A DNA stretch of 63,384 nucleotides, the filler included, from Rhabdomonas costata (taxonomy: Eukaryota): NCBI GenBank assembly GCA_019059605.1. It is 55 parts of 55 records of this genome, joined end to end, with 100 filler letters (N's around TTAATTAATTAA, not from the genome) between each part and the next. Parts side by side here need not be neighbours in the genome. Positions count along the whole stretch, not along the records: positions 15,022 to 16,075 come from JAHMHO010031142.1; 54 more parts are not named here. The stretch is one strand, 5' to 3'. This document shows, piece after piece, positions 7,881 to 58,083 of the stretch. Both the position numbers and the translations under genes were made by a program. How positions within the stretch are numbered: position 1 is the first letter of the stretch; each line of letters begins with the position of its first letter. The notes below the pieces were generated by a model. The model saw only the letters and a list, made by a program, of their open reading frames with translations. It ran no database searches and was not told the DNA's origin.

Positions 7881-9480
7881 CCGCGCCCCACGTGTTCCAG
7901 GCTTGTGTCCCCCCCAACCGGCGCCCAACACTGGGGCGAGAAACCCTTGTCGGGTTGTGGTGCATGCTTTTGGCACGCCCACTCTACTCCCACCCCCNNN
8001 NNNNNNNNNNNNNNNNNNNNNNNNNNNNNNNNNNNNNNNNNTTAATTAATTAANNNNNNNNNNNNNNNNNNNNNNNNNNNNNNNNNNNNNNNNNNNNGTG
8101 GGGGGTGGCGTTATTCTTTGAGAATATTTGAGAGAATCAAGCTCGAACAGAGTGAAATTATATGCGGAGGGTCATCGGCAGCGTTGCACGACTCTTGAAT
8201 CGAGTGATTGTGTTGAGAGAGAATTGTGTAAATTGAATTGGGCGAAGACAAGGCGCCGCACGCCATTGTCGTTTTTTACCTTTTTCGTCGCCTTTCTTCG
8301 CGGGCCCGGACCATGTCTCTTAGTGGACTTCGCTTGAGTTTTGACGTGTAATTCCTTGTAAGTCACAAAAAATTTAATAATTTTCGAAAATGACTGACAA
8401 TATATGGTAAAACTCGAGCTACTATAATAGACTCAGATTGATTAAGAATAAGAGATGAAAGATATGATATATCTTTTATAAATAATCTAACCTTTTGTTT
8501 TCTTCATAACACCTATATATATATTAGAAGTGTGTAACCCTGAAAAACCTGAAAAATAAATGGATAAAAATGCGAAAATGACAATATAAATATCCAATGC
8601 AGCCAATAAATACGATAGAAGTGTGGGTAACTGAAAGAAAAAACTAGTTTAATATTTGTTGTGATCTATAATTTCTCGTTATAATAAAAAATAATTTGAT
8701 AAGCAAAATGATATTTACGATGAGTAACATAAACAAATTGTAGGCTGGTGAATACGCATTTGGAATAATCAGCTATGTAATAGAAAGTGTAACTATACGA
8801 GAACAATAGAATATGAAGGATATTCTAGATGTGTAATGATACCAACTACACGATTACGACTAATAATATATTAACGATGTGTAATAAAATAATTATAAGT
8901 GAGACTCTGAAAAAAAAAAAAAAGTTTAAAAATCCGTTTCAATCTCTCTATCCCACTTGCCGTTTTATGATTATCCTCAAGAGGATCCACGTAATTCTGA
9001 AGCGTCTAGTCAGTTCATACTTTACAAACAATTCTTAATTCTTGTACAAAGTATTCAGTTAATAATGCCACTTTTATGAATCCGCTTAAAATATCTTATT
9101 GTCACACAACAAGTTAAAAAGAGATGAATGAGAATAAGTAGAACACAACACNNNNNNNNNNNNNNNNNNNNNNNNNNNNNNNNNNNNNNNNNNNNTTAAT
9201 TAATTAANNNNNNNNNNNNNNNNNNNNNNNNNNNNNNNNNNNNNNNNNNNNTGTTGTGGAGGTCATGAAAGAGAATATATAGGGTACTCACTTCGCCCTC
9301 CTTCTTCTTATTAGTGGAGGAGCTTGAGGCGGTACCCTCCTGCTGCGCCGAGCACTTCGGAGAACTTGGCACGGGACCAGAGAGAGCATCAGCAGGCTGT
9401 CAAGCTGGAGGGTAGAACCCGGAGGTGTTCGCGTCATCATCAACGGCAGTGCATTGTTCGTTTCTATGTGTTGTGTGTGT

Positions 9481-14651: not shown

Positions 14652-15040
14652 CTTGGCGGTAGGGCATCAGCCCAAGAAAGGCCACCACCGCAGGAACCCA
14701 TCCTGCACTCTCTGTGTTGAAAAAACGCAGCAGGGGCGGTGCATACGAGGGGAACATCCCAACGAGAAGATTTGACCGGATGGTCACAAATGTTCACCGA
14801 AAACTACCCAAGCGCTCATAGTTAATGAACTGTTCACCTGATTGCTTCACTTTGGGCGGAGAAGAGAAGCCAGATAGATTCTGAAGTCCAAAGGGACAGG
14901 GTTCGTTTGCCACACCACCCCNNNNNNNNNNNNNNNNNNNNNNNNNNNNNNNNNNNNNNNNNNNNTTAATTAATTAANNNNNNNNNNNNNNNNNNNNNNN
15001 NNNNNNNNNNNNNNNNNNNNNGTGTGGGTGTGTTTGGGGT

Positions 15041-15217
15041 GTGTGGGAGCGGTTGTTCCACGGGCGAATGTCCAGCTCGGTTCGGGAACTTATGCGGCGT
15101 GTGCTGCGGCGGCCCCCGAAGCTGCCGCAGATGACCCCCGCCGCGGAGAGGCTGTGCGGAGCCCTTTTCACTTCGCTCCCCGCCGATGCCTCTGTGCTGG
15201 ACCTGGGGTGTGCCCCT
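15041..15217 (+). CDS. Exon of an FtsJ/RrmJ-like SAM-dependent RNA methyltransferase (5' boundary uncertain)
   Basis: SVLDLGCAP immediately followed by a GTGAGT donor; matches motif I VLDLGCAPG. Confidence 0.7.
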
Positions 15218-15367
15218 GTGAGTGAGTGAGTGAGTGAGTGGGTGAGTGGGTGTATGTGTGTGTGTTCAATCGCTGTCCCAATGGTTCAAGCAGCTTGGAT
15301 TCTACTTCCGCCGAGTTCACGGAAACAAGCACTTTTCCTGCCTCGCCATCATCCCACAACTCCTCCA

Positions 15368-15790
15368 CCCAGCGGGAGCTTTTGCTTTGTGGTGTCCATG
15401 CTGTCAATGCTGTAATGGACGTTTTGGGTCGCCCCAAGCTTGTCAAATCACAGATCGATGATATTAATAAAAATCTCGCCATGTCAGAAAGCTTGATTCT
15501 CGAAGTGATGTCCAGCCCGATAACGCCCCGCAACCTGCGGGCAATTACCCGATTGAAGTACTGACCCTTGCCCTTCAGGCATACGCCGACTGCACCGCAG
15601 AACGAGTGACGCACCTTCCTGTGCCGCAATTTCTGTGGGCAATGGTTATCACTGGCAGATGACCGCCTCAGGACCCAACGGTCAATGGATTGTGGGTAAC
15701 GAAGGCTGCCTCTTTCCCATTGTTGATGCGCGCTCCTTCTTCCGCAATGGCCTCGAGCGAAGAGCCATTCTTCGGCTGACTCGGCCGACC
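15368..15790 (+). pseudogene. Frameshifted Josephin-like (MJD) cysteine protease ORF, probably mobile-element borne
   Basis: QRELLLCGVHAVNAV, GNYPIEVLTLALQ and HWQM..GQWIVGNEG occur in three successive frames (two -1 shifts). Confidence 0.7.
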
Positions 15791-16505
15791 TTCACCCCGG
15801 CAATGCGTCAGCCTCACCCTTCCTTCACGCTTTTTGGAGCCGTCGCGACTGCTTTAGATCACGATAACGCTCATGGAAAACACAAAGCTGAAACTGAGAC
15901 AGATGAAGCCCCCGACGAGCAGGCCCTGAGGCTCATGCCGCCCCCCAGTGCTCCAGTGTTCAGCAGTCCGCTAACGCCACTGTTCCTGTGGACATTAGTG
16001 ACAGCTCCAGTGAAGCAGCTTCTGTAACACCTTTTGTCTCTGGGACTCAGATGGCATCATCCACAGGATCCAACCNNNNNNNNNNNNNNNNNNNNNNNNN
16101 NNNNNNNNNNNNNNNNNNNTTAATTAATTAANNNNNNNNNNNNNNNNNNNNNNNNNNNNNNNNNNNNNNNNNNNNGTGGTGGGGGGTTGGGCCACGGCCT
16201 TCGGCTTTGCTAAAGAAAGAAGCGCAGCGTACGGTATGAGAGGGACCTTTCACAGACGGGACAGAGTAAAAGAAAGGAAAAAACTTCTTCAGCAAACGAA
16301 ACTGCGACAGATCAGACGCTCATAAAAACTTCTTTAGTGAAAGAAACTGTGTGAAAAAAAGAGACCGTGATATGTGAGCTTCATGGGACAAGAGAGAAAA
16401 AGAGTATGCATTCGTCCCGGCGAATTTTTCAGTCTGACAGAGTGCAGCCGTACTGGGGGATAGGGAAGGGGCCTCGCTGGACCCACCGAACGGCTGTCTG
16501 CAAAC

Positions 16506-24141: not shown

Positions 24142-25919
24142 ACCACCCCCACCNNNNNNNNNNNNNNNNNNNNNNNNNNNNNNNNNNNNNNNNNNNNTTA
24201 ATTAATTAANNNNNNNNNNNNNNNNNNNNNNNNNNNNNNNNNNNNNNNNNNNNGTGTTTTTTGAGCCATTTGGAGGCCGTAGGAGGCACATCGTAGAGCA
24301 CTGGAAGGGCCACTACACCCGCTTCAGGACTGTGTCTGGATGTTCTTAATGCAGATTGGATAGAAGGAAAGAATGCCCCAACAAAGGATTTGGCAGTGCA
24401 ATCCAACTATAAAAAAACAGCTGAGCGAAGGCACCGGAAGGCAAGGAGTGGGGGATCGCTACCATACCTCAGCCTGCTAATCTCAGACAGCAGAGCATCC
24501 GTCATCGCTTCTCGCCAACAACGTCAGCAAGGTGGCAACCAACCGAAAGCACTCAACGGTTCACACGGGAAAGCAAAACGCAAAACAGAGGACACGCTGG
24601 TTGGACTGAGAAAAGACACCGAAGGCACCATTGGACCTGAAGGAACCTCGCGCAAAAGAGGACCAGCAGTGGTCAACTCGCCCCAGTCGAATTCAATGCC
24701 CAGCATAGCCCACAAAATGGCGGAGAACCTTGTCTTTAGATCTCAAAAACAATCTCGGAATAAAGCAGTCAGCGACGGAAGCCTTCCATAATGAGTCCAC
24801 AAACTCTGCAACTCCGCAACTGAGCCAACTAATTCAAACTTACTAAAACTTACTAAATTCACCCCGGACACACACACCAAGCGCATGGCAAACGAATACA
24901 TCAACAAGAGAACTTGCCTGGTCTCGCCATTCTTTTACCGCCCCCTGTCCTCCACCTCCTCCAGGTTATGGTCTCATTGCGACCCCATTAGTATCGAAAG
25001 CATGGAAAACCCGATTTGCCGCAGATATATCTCGAGATGCCGAGGATGTGGTGCATTACCAAACGAGGCGAGGTTGAACTTGGTTCACATACAGCTAAAC
25101 AGGAGTGAGGAGCAGAGCTTGGGCCCCTTCACAACATCTGCACAGTCTGGCAAAAATCTGTATGGTCCCGTTTTGTCGCACAGCACAGCACAATACACAT
25201 AGATACACCAGCTCAAGTCCTGGCAAGTCTACAATCACACCACAGGTCAATAAAAAGCCACACGCACCGCTTCTGCAGACCAGTCCAATTGCAGGAACCA
25301 ACCCAACNNNNNNNNNNNNNNNNNNNNNNNNNNNNNNNNNNNNNNNNNNNNTTAATTAATTAANNNNNNNNNNNNNNNNNNNNNNNNNNNNNNNNNNNNN
25401 NNNNNNNGGGTTAGGTAAGTTGATTGCTTTTGCTTAGCAGCTGAAAACCACGCCTGGCTCTCTCCAGTGGCTGGGATATATGCGGACAAGTAGGACAGCA
25501 ATAGTCTAGGGGCGAAGGCCAGCGGCGCGGCGGTGGGAGCGGTTCGGGAGTGGTATCGCAGGCCATAATACTTCAACATATTACACGCCATTTTATCCAA
25601 GTGAAAAGTGTAGCCATTGTGTACAATCACTTCACACTACGTACACTGTGGAGCACTGGCGGACAGACTTTTATGACCACAGGAACTTAGCACCTTGGAT
25701 ATGCGCCCCGCGGCCCAAGACAAACTGGACAAAAAAATTCAGGGGACAAAGTATCCTGGCACCCAAAATCTGAACCGTGACATGAAGGGAGAATCGTTTT
25801 CCTCCTCCGGCAAGCGTTCGTACTCCCAGAAGTTGATCACATTCAAGGGCCACCCTGCCCAGATCAGGCGTCTTCGTTGGGGGTCCTTCAAAAATTTTTT
25901 TTGGGGTCACGTCTAACGG

Positions 25920-25995
25920 CGTTATACGTTTTGGGACTTTGCGGAAGAAAAAATACACATCAACCACAGGAAAGAGGCAGCCTTCATCACACACA
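25920..25995 (-). pseudogene. Second, partial copy of the Josephin-like ORF
   Basis: VCDEGCLFPVVDVYFFFRK aligns to VGNEGCLFPIVDARSFFRN at 15692-15748; shared DNA GAAGGCTGCCTCTTTCC and TTCTTCCGCAA. Confidence 0.65.
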
Positions 25996-26345
25996 CAAAA
26001 AATACAAAAAACCCAAATTATTGTGGCAAGGGTTAAGAAGCTGAGCATCCTTTTTCTCTAAACAGGAATTTATCACATTAACTCACCGCTGATGTGCGCG
26101 CGCACGTGGGAATGCTCCAAAAGATTACCCCCTCCCCAATTCTCATCAAAACAACTCCGAATCGGTCATTACACTACAGTACAACACCGCGCAGAGTGCT
26201 GGCCGTTCTGCTCCGTTACCTCAACATCAGCTCGAAACAATCTTTGAAGGGGTGAAAAACAGTGGTCCCGATATCCACCCCTCACCATCCACTCTAGTCC
26301 GGCCTGCCAAAACAGAGCCCACTTTGTCCGACTCCACGGCAGCCG

Positions 26346-33961: not shown

Positions 33962-36900
33962 GTAAATGAGAGCGTTTGCAAGCTTTTGTTTGACTGGGTG
34001 TTTGAGTGGGTTCGTGTCTGACGCGGAGGGAATAGAGTGCTCACGTAAAGAAACGCAAGTGAGGGCCCCACGCATAAGATGCACACCTGGATGTGTGCGA
34101 CGATATGCATGGTTGGGGGAACTTAGGAATTGAGAGAGGGAACAAGTGGGTACGGTATTGTGGGTGGGCTCGGTGGGATGAGAGGGAGAGTCTGACTCGG
34201 CTAAAATTGTCCCCAGATTCTTCACTGGTTGTGCTTCATGCTGCCTCGCTCGCACTTCTACTGCTTCCGTCACGCACGTGCGGGGATGTCTTCGACTCGA
34301 CGTCGCGTGAGGGATGAGGAAGTGCACATTTTTGTCCTCAGTTCACTTCTTCCTCGGCGGATAGTGTGGTTTCTGTTTTTCTGTTTCTTGCTTGTGAGGG
34401 GTGGGGGTTTTCTGCGGGAATGTATTGGTTGTCTCACCTATCGGTTCACATAGGTCTCGGCAGTCCTCTTCAATTGGCAGTGCAATTGGCTGAGCACGCG
34501 AATGGCGACCCCCCCCCCCCAACCAACCACCCCCACCACNNNNNNNNNNNNNNNNNNNNNNNNNNNNNNNNNNNNNNNNNNNNTTAATTAATTAANNNNN
34601 NNNNNNNNNNNNNNNNNNNNNNNNNNNNNNNNNNNNNNNGGGTTGGGGGGTAATTAGACTGTTTTGCGGTTGAACGGGTGCGTTGATGTATATTGTCTTA
34701 CGCGTTTTCCTGTGTTTTTCCGTTTCATTGGTGCAAATTACTGGTTGTTTTGTTGACCCCAGCCTTTTACTTCAATCTTAGTCTACAATCTTAGTAGAGA
34801 GTGGGCTCCCTGGATTCGAATCCCACCCCGAACATTCGAGGCGAGTTGGGGAGTCTTGGAATTGAACCTGTGATATTTGGCACGGGTGCCACATACTTAC
34901 CCCCCCCCCTGGGTCCCCCCTTATGCCAGGCCATTTTCACACCATAAACTTCCCGAGTTCTTTTTCTTCTGTGCTTGTCTCATTCTCTGAGGATCTCTGT
35001 TATGTGGTCACCGTTCCTTTCCGCCGCCCCGAGGTGTAGTATCGTGACAAGAACCCGAGGTTCATACCCGCACCAGAAGTGCTTTTCTCAAACCCGCTAC
35101 ATAAATATGTCGCGGCCCAATCCGCATTTGGGGCGCGACATATTCACTCCGACCACCGCGGTAGAATGACCACCTTGGGGTTAAGGCGAAGCGTTAGAAG
35201 CGTAGTGATAACCTTGGGCATCACTACCTGGAGGCCAGCCCACCACGCCTCAGTCTAACACAGCCTTATACAGCCAATCCCTCAATATGGTGACGATACA
35301 ATCACAAACACCGACTCGGGTTATGCAGCTTGAGTAATGATAGCTATGCATTACCATTTCCGGTCGCCACATCACCTCAGCCACCGTGCCATCTCGTCTG
35401 GGTTGAGTGGAGTATTATCCCCTGTGGCCTAGTTCCAGATCAACCGTGGGTACATTTTCCCAGCAATACTGCCACATCCTGTGGGGGTTCATGTCAACCA
35501 CTAGAGACTAAACAGATATAACCAAAAGGTGCGGCATCTAGCCTAACTCTCCTCTAGCCACTACTAACGCATGAAGCTAAGGTGTTCGGATACGCGCGCG
35601 TTGTATAGCCCATAGTCGCAATGCGGCAGTAGAGGCTACATCTCCGCCGCAGTTTCCTTCAAGCGGTTAAACTGTTCCAGCTTCACACCCCCCNNNNNNN
35701 NNNNNNNNNNNNNNNNNNNNNNNNNNNNNNNNNNNNNTTAATTAATTAANNNNNNNNNNNNNNNNNNNNNNNNNNNNNNNNNNNNNNNNNNNNTGTTTTT
35801 TGTCACTCACTATTGTATTCATCATTTACATCTTGATTATCTCACTCGCATCCACTAGTGTTGCAAATAATATCTCCGCTACAAGATAATTGATGAATAC
35901 AATAGTGAGTGACAGAAAACGTGATAATGATACACCAAGTACATGGGGACATACAGAGGTATTCTAAATACTTTCTATAGGTACGCTAAGTGTCATAGTC
36001 GTCGGGAGTGCCATGAAATTGGAAACTGTGTGTCCGCAGTAATTACCAATTTACAAAACCCAGTACGATGATACAATCGTATAATATTTTACTACTGTAT
36101 GAGTTACCGCAAGAGAAATGTGTACGTGTTTCAACGGCAACGTGCACAAACAGCAAAGGCGTTGTGGATTGTGTCTGGGGCACATCTTCACCAAAAGTAG
36201 ATATAGCCGCACAACCATCGGGATGTAATGTTGAAATTGAATTAAGCGATGCAGTCACATGCTTTTGTGGTTCCCACAAAGTTCTACAGAGCAATAGTCA
36301 AAAATCATGATATAACACTGCAATTGCCTTTCAATCAAACTTTATGCGGTTTTTGTGTCAACGATGTGAGGTATCAACACGTACATTGTCAATTACAGTG
36401 AACATACTGCATAAGACGCTATGGCTGGTTTTATGTCATAAGGCCTGGTATTTGAGTTTTTTGACCTTTGGAATTTCTAGGAATTGAACACCATAATGTT
36501 CTAAATTACAAACATGGGAATCTCTCCACACGATTTGACAAATTTGGCAAGTCAAGTGTTGCAGTCGGCAAATTAAGTGATCAAATGTCCTCCTCATACC
36601 ATGTCTTTCTTTATCTGTCTGTGCTCTGATCCACTTGGTACACCCCACCTACTCCGCAGGTCACCAGTGCGTGATCACCGCGCGTTGGACTCCGTTCCAA
36701 CGGTTTCAGATTTTAGTCATGTAAACTTTACGCCCTGAGTCCCATCTGTTACACAACATTGAAACTATTCTGCAGATGGTGTGGTTTGAACCTACACCAC
36801 CGCAAAGACTACAATCCTTGCACCTCTCGTCCATCACACAAACACCNNNNNNNNNNNNNNNNNNNNNNNNNNNNNNNNNNNNNNNNNNNNTTAATTAATT

Positions 36901-56005: not shown

Positions 56006-58083
56006 GTTGAGGGGTTCCTTGATGCGTATGAGTATTCCTATGTCCTACTCCGCTATCGCTCCGTGCCTTCTATCTGCGATGCCCTTTCTGTATACCTACT
56101 ACGCATGGCTCCCTCGCTGCGCTCAGACCCATGCTTCGTGTCTACTGTATGATAAAGGGTATGGATGATGATAGTGTAAGGGCCCCGCAGGGTACAAGGG
56201 CTGTTAAGGGGTGATGGTGATGCAGGAATACCCACCCCTACTACGGATGCACCTCGTACCTCGATGCATGCTACGTGACATGCAGTTCCTCCTCGTGCTT
56301 GGGCAGCATGAGGAGGAACGTACCGACGGCAGTCGGGGAGTGACGACGTGTGAGTTCATACCATGGGAGCATTGCATCGAGGTACGAGATGACCATGCGA
56401 CTCTAGAATGTATCCCTCCCGTCGCTCCCTCTCGGTCGCTCCTCACTCGTTCCCACCACCCNNNNNNNNNNNNNNNNNNNNNNNNNNNNNNNNNNNNNNN
56501 NNNNNTTAATTAATTAANNNNNNNNNNNNNNNNNNNNNNNNNNNNNNNNNNNNNNNNNNNNTGTGGTTTGGTCGTGGGTACGTTCGTGGGTACCTTTGTT
56601 GCCAAAGGGGACATGCCGCGAATTTTCCCTGTTATCCCCGTTCCCTTGTTATCATTTGATAGTGCGCAAAATTGCGCGTTCCCTTTCGCCATGCCCTTTG
56701 TCTAAGTTAATAGAAACTCTTGTGTTTCCCGCGTTAGCAGTTCACGCTGTCGGTCCTTTTGGCTTAACTGGCAGTTACTCGGATGCCCCCTGGTTTCCTG
56801 CAACAAAGGCATTGTCCACCAAAGTGCGAAAATTTCCCCCTTTTTTAGGCTTCTTTGTTGCCACTGAAAAGTAATGTGAAAAATTGCAATTAACCTCAAG
56901 TAGATGTACAACAAGTTTCTGTTTTTTTTGCAGTTTCTCTTCCTCCTGTTTGCTTCTTTTCATATGAACAAGCCTATTCATCACGGGAATCCCAGTGGAA
57001 ACCAGGACCTGATCCGGCGAGCCTTGGGTCCAGATTTACAACCACGCGAAACGACGCTGCGGTATTCATGCAATCATGGACTGGGACGACTGTCTTTCGC
57101 GACAGATGAAGACACACCGAGCAGAAAGCGAGCTCGAGCGAGACCTTTTTCTGCTCGAGAACTTCCCTGCCAGATCTGCGGCGATGTGGTTGTTGGGCAA
57201 TTCCCTGGAGACGCCTTTCACCTCTTCCGAGGAGCGGGACTGCTGGGCGGCACCTTCAATTGGATGGGAGACGAGACCCGCATTATCAGCAGAAGGAGAA
57301 GGAGAAGGAAACCCTTTTCCGCGAGTTTGAGCAGAGTGGTCTCAAGGCGACAGAGTTGTTCTTGCCGAGCAATGTGATCCATGGCTGTCAGAACTGTAGG
57401 ACCCTTCTGGAAAAGGGAGGAGTGTATTTTGAGCAGAGAGACTCGCTGTGGTACTGGTGTAGACTGATGAACCGCAGTCAGGATTTTCTCGGTGGCACAA
57501 CACTCTTGTCGGAGATCACCTTCAGTCCCAGTTCTCGAACGTCCCCAACATGCCCCAGCTTCTGGCGCTCCACGCAAGGTGTCAGAAGGTTTGCACCCAT
57601 ACCTTCTATTTAACTNNNNNNNNNNNNNNNNNNNNNNNNNNNNNNNNNNNNNNNNNNNNTTAATTAATTAANNNNNNNNNNNNNNNNNNNNNNNNNNNNN
57701 NNNNNNNNNNNNNNNGTGGGGTGGGTGGGTTTGCATATCCGGACGAAGGCAGGAAACTCGTCGCTCGATGTTGGTTTTTGTGGTGTCAATAATGGTGCCA
57801 TAAAACACGAAAATGAACACGAACCTTAGCTTTCATCAATGTTGAAGGGAGGGGGAATCGCCACGAATGGAGGAGATGGAATGAAGTGGAAGGAGAAGAA
57901 GGCTCACAACGGTGATGGGGTAAAGTATTAGAGAAATTATGAATCAAAGGGCAATGGCTGCCTGCAATTCCCGCAACCCCAAACCCACACCCAAACACAC
58001 CGCTTTGGGTGGTCTCGGCCGAATGATAAGGATTAATTGGTCGCCTTGGCGGTAGCAACAGCCACGGTGTGGTTGAGGCGTAC

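Follow-up and report, generated by a model that had tools for sequence, protein, structure and literature searches.

The stretch of DNA analysed here (the window) comprises 63,384 bases of the Rhabdomonas costata assembly GCA_019059605.1, in which 55 contigs of about 1054 bp are joined by runs of N and a ttaattaattaa spacer. A Josephin-like reading frame sits in the contig at 15022–16075 (1054 bp; JAHMHO010031142.1), and a preliminary description made from the sequence had placed it at 15368–15790 as a cryptic, intronless deubiquitinase frame carried by a mobile element. Frameshift-aware alignment to intact relatives shows homology across 15264–16075, which contains the linker between a reverse transcriptase (RT) and the Josephin domain, the Josephin domain itself and the start of a C-terminal extension, and which runs off the contig end. 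This region is very probably a dead, 5'-truncated insertion of a Penelope-like element (PLE) of the group with an N-terminal endonuclease, namely of the Chlamys type. The parts of the copy are listed below; P numbers denote related proteins and L numbers metagenome loci, the latter sought with a four-sequence alignment.

15264–16075, plus strand: 5'-truncated, frameshifted copy, very probably of a Chlamys-type PLE (frameshift-aware alignment to intact relatives)
15270–15296, plus strand: linker motif SLSQWFKQL, 5' of the Josephin domain, matching the WFKK/WFKR motif after the RT thumb
15370–15787, plus strand: Josephin-like cysteine protease domain in three frames (family-profile matches)
15788–16075, plus strand: start of the C-terminal extension, with SPFLHAF, DEAPDEQALRL and EAASVT motifs (aligned to P0002 residues 170–242 and to P0009)

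The three consecutive frames and their peptides, as first quoted, are all present in that order in the contig. Phase 1 gives QRELLLCGVHAVNAV...NKNLA from 15370 (in fuller reading ..STQRELLLCGVHAVNAVMDVLGRPKLVKSQIDDINKNLA..), phase 0 gives GNYPIEVLTLALQ at 15540–15578, and phase 2 gives GNGYHWQM...GQWIVGNEG at 15638–15706 (in fuller reading ..GNGYHWQMTASGPNGQWIVGNEG..); the catalytic codons follow one another as Cys at 15388–15390, His at 15650–15652 and Asn at 15698–15700. The limits of the feature had been drawn too narrowly, as homology extends from about 15264, directly after a GTGA/TG repeat, to the contig end at 16075, where the C-terminal extension is cut off ahead of the Cys/His domain found in intact relatives. 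Likewise, the two −1 frameshifts described earlier, near 15502 and 15636, are real, but the total is about six, with frame changes near 15297, 15502, 15636, 15812, 15836 and 15977–16010. Across these shifting frames the copy is colinear with its closest intact relatives at 50–68% identity, and the paths aligned to P0009, P0005 and P0002 are free of stop codons:

window 15264–16071 against P0009 residues 335–603: 52% identity
window 15255–15727 against P0005 residues 97–259: 68% of 153 aligned residues identical
window 15295–16029 against P0002 residues 2–242: 55% identity

A fragmented assembly with contigs of about 1 kb, together with an aligned path lacking stop codons, could suggest that the frame changes are assembly errors and that an intact Josephin gene, possibly a domesticated one, lies in this contig. 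This is very improbable: six frame changes fall within 810 bp, those at 15297 and 15502 (read by eye) lie outside homopolymers, a start codon is missing, and a microsatellite directly precedes the linker. Moreover, P0001 and the metagenome contig L002 are likewise frameshifted, as expected of a decaying repeat family. The earlier view of a decayed and intronless copy is upheld, in the form of a multiply frameshifted and truncated Josephin-like tail.

The strength of the Josephin match depends on the profile used. Pfam Josephin (PF02099) scores 12.9 bits on the first window piece alone (E=0.1; cut-off 26 bits) and leaves the other two pieces unmatched. A family Josephin profile of 148 positions, built from relatives only with the window copy left out, is matched by the three pieces at positions 4–48, 52–90 and 98–144, with 56.9, 47.5 and 46.7 bits and E values of 1e-16 to 1e-19 each. 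A word-seeded search among longer proteins brought up P0001 and P0002, each 63% identical to the first piece (E=3e-11 for P0001 and 9e-11 for P0002, against 5.8 billion proteins), and P0002 is colinear with all three window frames. In the ESM Atlas, the clusters closest to the first piece are those of Josephin (178 shared features, score 0.93). A search among proteins of near length with the third piece returned zero matches, as did a comparison of the three pieces with PDB chain sequences at E<=10. A further tblastn match of the first piece, at 57058–57165, was discarded as chance (E=1.6; E=0.027 with P0005).

The identity of the domain is clearer in the relatives. Eleven reach the PF02099 cut-off: P0001 (29.8 bits), P0002 (28.1), P0003 (28.1), P0012 (33.5), P0038 (27.0), P0045 (41.9), P0011 (26.6), P0019 (28.8), P0027 (27.4), P0028 (26.5) and P0051 (31.2). 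Four fall below it, namely P0005 (25.2), P0006 (19.3), P0016 (22.2) and P0093 (21.0), and in several members Pfam Josephin aligns over the N-terminal half alone. We tested the fold on the relative P0002 instead of on the broken window copy: an AlphaFold2 model from a 26-row alignment has a predicted local distance difference test score (pLDDT) above 90 over residues 28–170, and the seven PDB entries ranked highest by Foldseek each represent the Josephin domain of either ataxin-3 or JOSD2 (E 1.8e-5 to 2.1e-3, identity 17–21%, target-normalised template modelling score 0.51–0.59). With relatives above the Pfam cut-off and these seven fold matches, the assignment to a Josephin-type domain holds; the window copy is tied to those relatives by its 50–68% identity.

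The presumed motifs of cellular Josephins, Q..LC..HA.N, GNY...V..AL and HW....G.W, resemble those of the window family. Cellular Josephins (ataxin-3, JOSD1/2; PDB 3o65, 1yzb, 2dos, 6pgv) also share the fold and the Cys-His-Asp/Asn order with it; however, identity to them is only 17–21%, the domain of the window family lies inside a retroelement polyprotein, and its oxyanion Gln is not fixed. Over 26 aligned relatives, the catalytic Cys appears in 24 of the 25 rows that have no gap there, the His in 25 of 26 and the Asp/Asn in 21 of 24, while the Gln upstream of the Cys varies. As the triad is kept across rows down to 19% identity to P0002, conservation argues that the protease would be active in live elements.

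The genetic context of the domain comes from the longest relatives. P0006 (610 residues) and P0009 (767 residues), retrieved through a search with P0002 and a listing of cluster members, each hold a single open reading frame (ORF) with the order RT, Josephin, linker and Cys/His tail domain. The RT motifs YLYGICKLHK..RWIAG, WTRDFTTMYTNL, GVPMGGKASSEIANLF and RYIDDLLGFG lie 5' of the Josephin domain in both, and the WFKK/WFKR (WFKKL/WFKRM) linker motif is common to P0005, P0006, P0009, P0033, P0038 and L002. The opening 'M' of P0002 is an internal residue of a longer ORF, which in L002 reads ..WFKKMVDTSAAEF... A HMMER search with P0006 against 1.84 billion representatives gave 1090 matches at E<=1e-3, of which 358 reach E<=1e-10 and 56 reach E<=1e-30. 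Among the 158 proteins that we collected, 145 match RT and 33 match the family Josephin profile; 22 match both, always with RT first.

This fusion bears on the possibility that the window copy derives from a host JOSD or ataxin-3 gene, whether as a processed pseudogene or as a decayed duplicate; such an origin would account for a frameshifted, intronless sequence that has no start codon and sits in a possible intron. The homology, however, reaches the RT–Josephin linker (SLSQWFKQL, a motif not expected in a host JOSD gene) on one side and the element-specific tail on the other, and every detectable relative at 40–68% identity is linked to RT or is a fragment of such an ORF. PDB Josephins are related by fold at 17–21% identity, and the window pieces have no match among PDB sequences at E<=10. 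Since the homology begins within the linker, an origin from a host JOSD gene is effectively excluded, and with RT and Josephin in one ORF in 22 of the 158 proteins, membership in a multi-copy retroelement family, as first proposed, is borne out.

The class of retroelement was determined from the same relatives, 92 of which were scanned with Pfam. None of these carries APE (Exo_endo_phos), RLE or RNase H. GIY-YIG is found 5' of RT in nine proteins by Pfam and in 30 of 158 by a profile built from those nine, always N-terminal. The nine aligned endonuclease seeds have zero Cys between GIY and YIG, so that the cysteines of a CCHH motif are missing. Between the endonuclease and RT we read by eye, in P0025, P0013, P0060, P0100, P0030 and P0006, a CxC motif (ECVCRKY, EICTCTQF, ECGCQHF, ECACRVF), a GxKF/Y motif (GRKF/GRKY) and a DK motif (ADKS, TDKS, VDKT), the last continuing with S or T. 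Within the subclade of the window copy, P0060 alone shows the endonuclease, as a partial domain; it keeps the C-terminal half (E=2e-8) and is 37% identical to P0006 by best local alignment. In another Josephin subclade, P0033 (endonuclease and RT) is 60–70% identical over the overlap to P0038 and P0124 (RT and Josephin). According to Craig et al. 2021 (PMC8557442), the CxC, GxKF/Y and DK motifs with an N-terminal GIY-YIG are diagnostic of Naiad/Chlamys PLEs, and the lack of CCHH together with a DK motif without a fixed third residue marks the Chlamys state, not Naiad. As CCHH is missing and the third residue of the DK motif is not fixed, the relatives are in the Chlamys state.

Kojima and Fujiwara are said to have described the Dualen/RandI non-LTR retrotransposons (those without long terminal repeats) of Chlamydomonas in 2005, and the preliminary description had taken this class as its model for the window copy. 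That the ORF of Dualen elements includes an accessory cysteine protease related to Josephin, as the preliminary description stated, is confirmed in print (PMC8557442; JCP label in PMC9977147), and the window copy, having neither RT nor endonuclease, cannot by itself separate Dualen from a PLE. The relatives can: among those closest in Josephin, the RT of the fused ORF shows Penelope-like motifs, and where Dualen combines APE, RLE and RNase H, none of which appears in the 92 relatives scanned with Pfam, the window family has GIY-YIG, CxC and a PLE-type RT instead. A decayed Dualen/RandI copy is accordingly a slim prospect; the earlier proposal was right in calling the Josephin carrier a retroelement and wrong as to its class, which points to a Chlamys-type PLE.

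The closest known system is Chlamys-1_cBra of Chara braunii, an N-terminal-endonuclease PLE that Craig et al. 2021 (PMC8557442) describe as having a C-terminal Josephin-like motif and, after it, an unknown motif in which C and H are conserved. Compared by this published description, its layout is the same as that of the window family, in a different host. The Josephin homology of Chlamys-1_cBra is given there as weak, whereas in the window family 11 relatives pass the Pfam cut-off and the Josephin fold is predicted. The combination of Josephin and Cys/His domains is therefore already in print for one element, and the window family is another example of it, not a new kind. A further parallel is NeSL/Utopia, whose accessory is likewise a cysteine protease, specific for ubiquitin-like proteins and related to Ulp1 (PMC4640811); these elements differ from the window family in belonging to the RLE non-LTR class, in using another protease family and in placing the protease N-terminally.

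The 5' end of the window copy begins exactly at a microsatellite tract:

15218–15265, plus strand: microsatellite of (GTGA)n and then a short (TG)n, where the truncated element has its 5' junction (Tandem Repeats Finder and run scan)

This tract consists of 8.8 copies of GTGA at 15218–15252 (Tandem Repeats Finder) and a (TG)>=4 run at 15255–15265. The second, minus-strand copy in the window, treated below, also meets a TG run at its 5' end (25988–25997). Together with L002, where the 3' untranslated region ends at (TG)n, and P0011, whose ORF opens with VCVCVCVC and then jumps into RT motif B, there are four junctions at (TG)n, all on the element's sense strand; the sample is small, and a window position has a chance of only 1.6% of falling no more than 10 nt from a (TG/CA)>=4 run. 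Chlamys elements insert into (CA)n microsatellites and are frequently 5'-truncated, as PMC8557442 states; the (TG)n junctions and the truncation fit such (CA)n targeting. Rfam gave no family in the window at the gathering score, nor did L001 or L002 yield one at E<=1, so that no hammerhead ribozyme was seen; this ribozyme is likewise missing in most Chlamys elements.

Two observations concern neighbouring host genes. In the metagenome contig L002 (1775–1968), (TG)n adjoins the 3' end of the element, and beyond it comes an open frame that weakly matches dynein heavy chain N2 (E=0.008); the element looks like an insertion beside, or in an intron of, a putative dynein gene. In the gene model P0021 (2811 residues), GIY-YIG and RT are fused with a kinesin motor (Pfam E=4e-68); gene prediction has probably merged a kinesin gene of the host with an element inserted there.

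From these features we propose the following course of events. An intact element would encode, in a single ORF, a GIY-YIG endonuclease, a CxC linker, RT, a Josephin-like protease and a Cys/His tail. Following published Chlamys biology, active copies would nick (TG)n/(CA)n microsatellites with the GIY-YIG endonuclease and then carry out target-primed reverse transcription, and incomplete reverse transcription would leave 5'-truncated copies like the one in the window. Of all this, the window copy retains only the linker, Josephin and a portion of the tail, and it would afterwards have gained about six frame-shifting indels. As it lacks RT and endonuclease, it is inert: it neither moves nor makes the protease. 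In active relatives, the Josephin domain may protect the element protein, or a host factor that the element needs, from ubiquitin-dependent removal.

The preliminary description had also placed a diverged partial copy at 25920–25995 on the minus strand. Such a copy exists in shorter form:

25939–25995, minus strand: relic of the same family (DEGCLFPVVD..FFFR), found by blastn and starting at the TG run 25988–25997

The relic spans 57 nt and is 79% identical to 15691–15747 (blastn E=6e-8 within the window). By tblastn it is matched by window fragment C (E=2e-4), P0002 (E=0.002) and, over 25869–26000, P0048 (E=1.2e-6). Since a frameshift-aware extension scored 71–74, inside the range of shuffled DNA (51–82), the short core alone is credible. 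The Asp that had been read at the third catalytic position borders on the TG repeat, which makes its homology questionable, and the relic, which covers the stretch downstream of the catalytic Asn/Asp, is uninformative on the triad. When all 158 family proteins were compared with the window by tblastn, matches were confined to two of the 55 contigs, with no RT or endonuclease fragment elsewhere. The suggestion that the window implies a high-copy element is not supported, because the second copy is a tiny relic and the count amounts to one and a bit copies. In public assemblies, the relatives occur as multiple, truncated or frameshifted copies (P0001, P0004, P0007, P0008, P0010, L002), as expected of a repeat family.

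The tail domain that follows Josephin in intact relatives has the pattern Cys-x19-21-Cys-x2-Cys-x7-His and then an acidic end (P0007 residues 110–175; P0002 residues 325–390). Its model has a pLDDT near 90, with three strands and one helix. It is unmatched in Pfam, in the PDB by Foldseek (best E=1.6), in a wide VIA-align search (best Z=3.1) and in the ESM Atlas (no usable match), which does not show that its fold is new.

Josephin is not the only protease found in this position. USP (UCH) scores above the Pfam cut-off 3' of RT in six proteins (P0029, P0057, P0062, P0063, P0064, P0074), and a USP profile built from those six matches nine of the 158, adding P0085, P0125 and P0137. P0062 holds GIY-YIG, RT and USP in one ORF of 1635 residues. 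In P0059, a Ulp1 (C48) domain follows RT; because this is a single protein, it may be a chimeric gene model. An RT tree of 75 sequences places the Josephin carriers in at least three places and the USP group beside the window's Josephin clade. Our literature search on PLEs found no report of USP or Ulp1 carriage.

These substitutions bear on what the Josephin domain does. Retroelement proteases, as is generally known, commonly process polyproteins, and the domain might accordingly cut its own polyprotein, for example to free the Cys/His tail from RT, instead of acting as a deubiquitinase; the variable oxyanion Gln and the members that align to the N-terminal half of Pfam Josephin alone agree with such a role. 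It is nevertheless rather unlikely, as USP or Ulp1 occupies the same C-terminal place in the same RT family. Josephin, USP and Ulp1 are all isopeptidases of ubiquitin or ubiquitin-like proteins at one position, and their recurrence would suggest that deconjugation is what selection favours. The Josephin domain would most likely be a deubiquitinase that shields an element protein or a host factor. With about an even chance of being right, a wider reading can be offered, in which N-terminal-endonuclease PLEs form a large, mostly undescribed radiation that has repeatedly acquired different ubiquitin-type deconjugating proteases in its C-terminal extension. This radiation is seen in metagenome and environmental assemblies, possibly with euglenid and other protist hosts. 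If the reading is true, recurrent protease swapping would make removal of ubiquitin marks a selected accessory function, for example in escape from ubiquitin-dependent host restriction.

Several points weigh against assigning the window copy to a Chlamys-type family. Within the window's subclade, zero single ORFs or contigs among those collected join GIY-YIG, RT and Josephin, and the proposed full layout is a composite of fragments that overlap and are not identical. The putative clade assignment draws on motifs and domain order, without a phylogeny that includes named Chlamys and Naiad references. The RT tree was made with FastTree and rooted at the midpoint; its support values were not inspected, and it contains unnamed relatives only. 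Two matches in 55 contigs cannot give the copy number in the host, and some of the frame changes might in principle stem from errors of assembly.

For the window itself, the finding has little weight beyond annotation: 15264–16075 is, very probably, a dead repeat to be masked as a PLE, not a JOSD gene. Its relatives matter more. The extension with Josephin and Cys/His domains, printed for one Chara element, belongs to a large, diverse family, and the confident Josephin fold with its conserved triad gives biochemical assays a definite target protein. Should the host be a euglenid, Chlamys-type PLEs would occur in a supergroup not listed in Craig et al. 2021 (PMC8557442), in which a word search finds 'euglen', 'excavat' and 'discob' zero times; a literature search on PLEs and Euglena likewise found nothing relevant.

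Upstream of the microsatellite, the same contig contains one further frame:

15023–15217, plus strand: flanking open frame in presumed host sequence, open from the contig start, ending in ...VLDLGCAP and followed by GTGAGT

Being open and ending at GTGAGT, this frame may be a putative exon. The label of an FtsJ-like exon, under which it was first described, finds no backing in Pfam, where the frame has zero matches at E<=10, nor among PDB sequences, where its sole match is an unrelated protease (E=1.4).

Across the window, there are 29 (TG/CA)>=4 microsatellite runs in 58.6 kb, several of them at contig ends; such runs probably both break the assembly and serve as the element's target. Finally, the contigs at 8098–9151 and 35794–36846 have a G+C content of 32.5% and 40.6%, the other 53 contigs ranging from 47.5 to 62.3%, and these two may represent organellar DNA or a contaminant.

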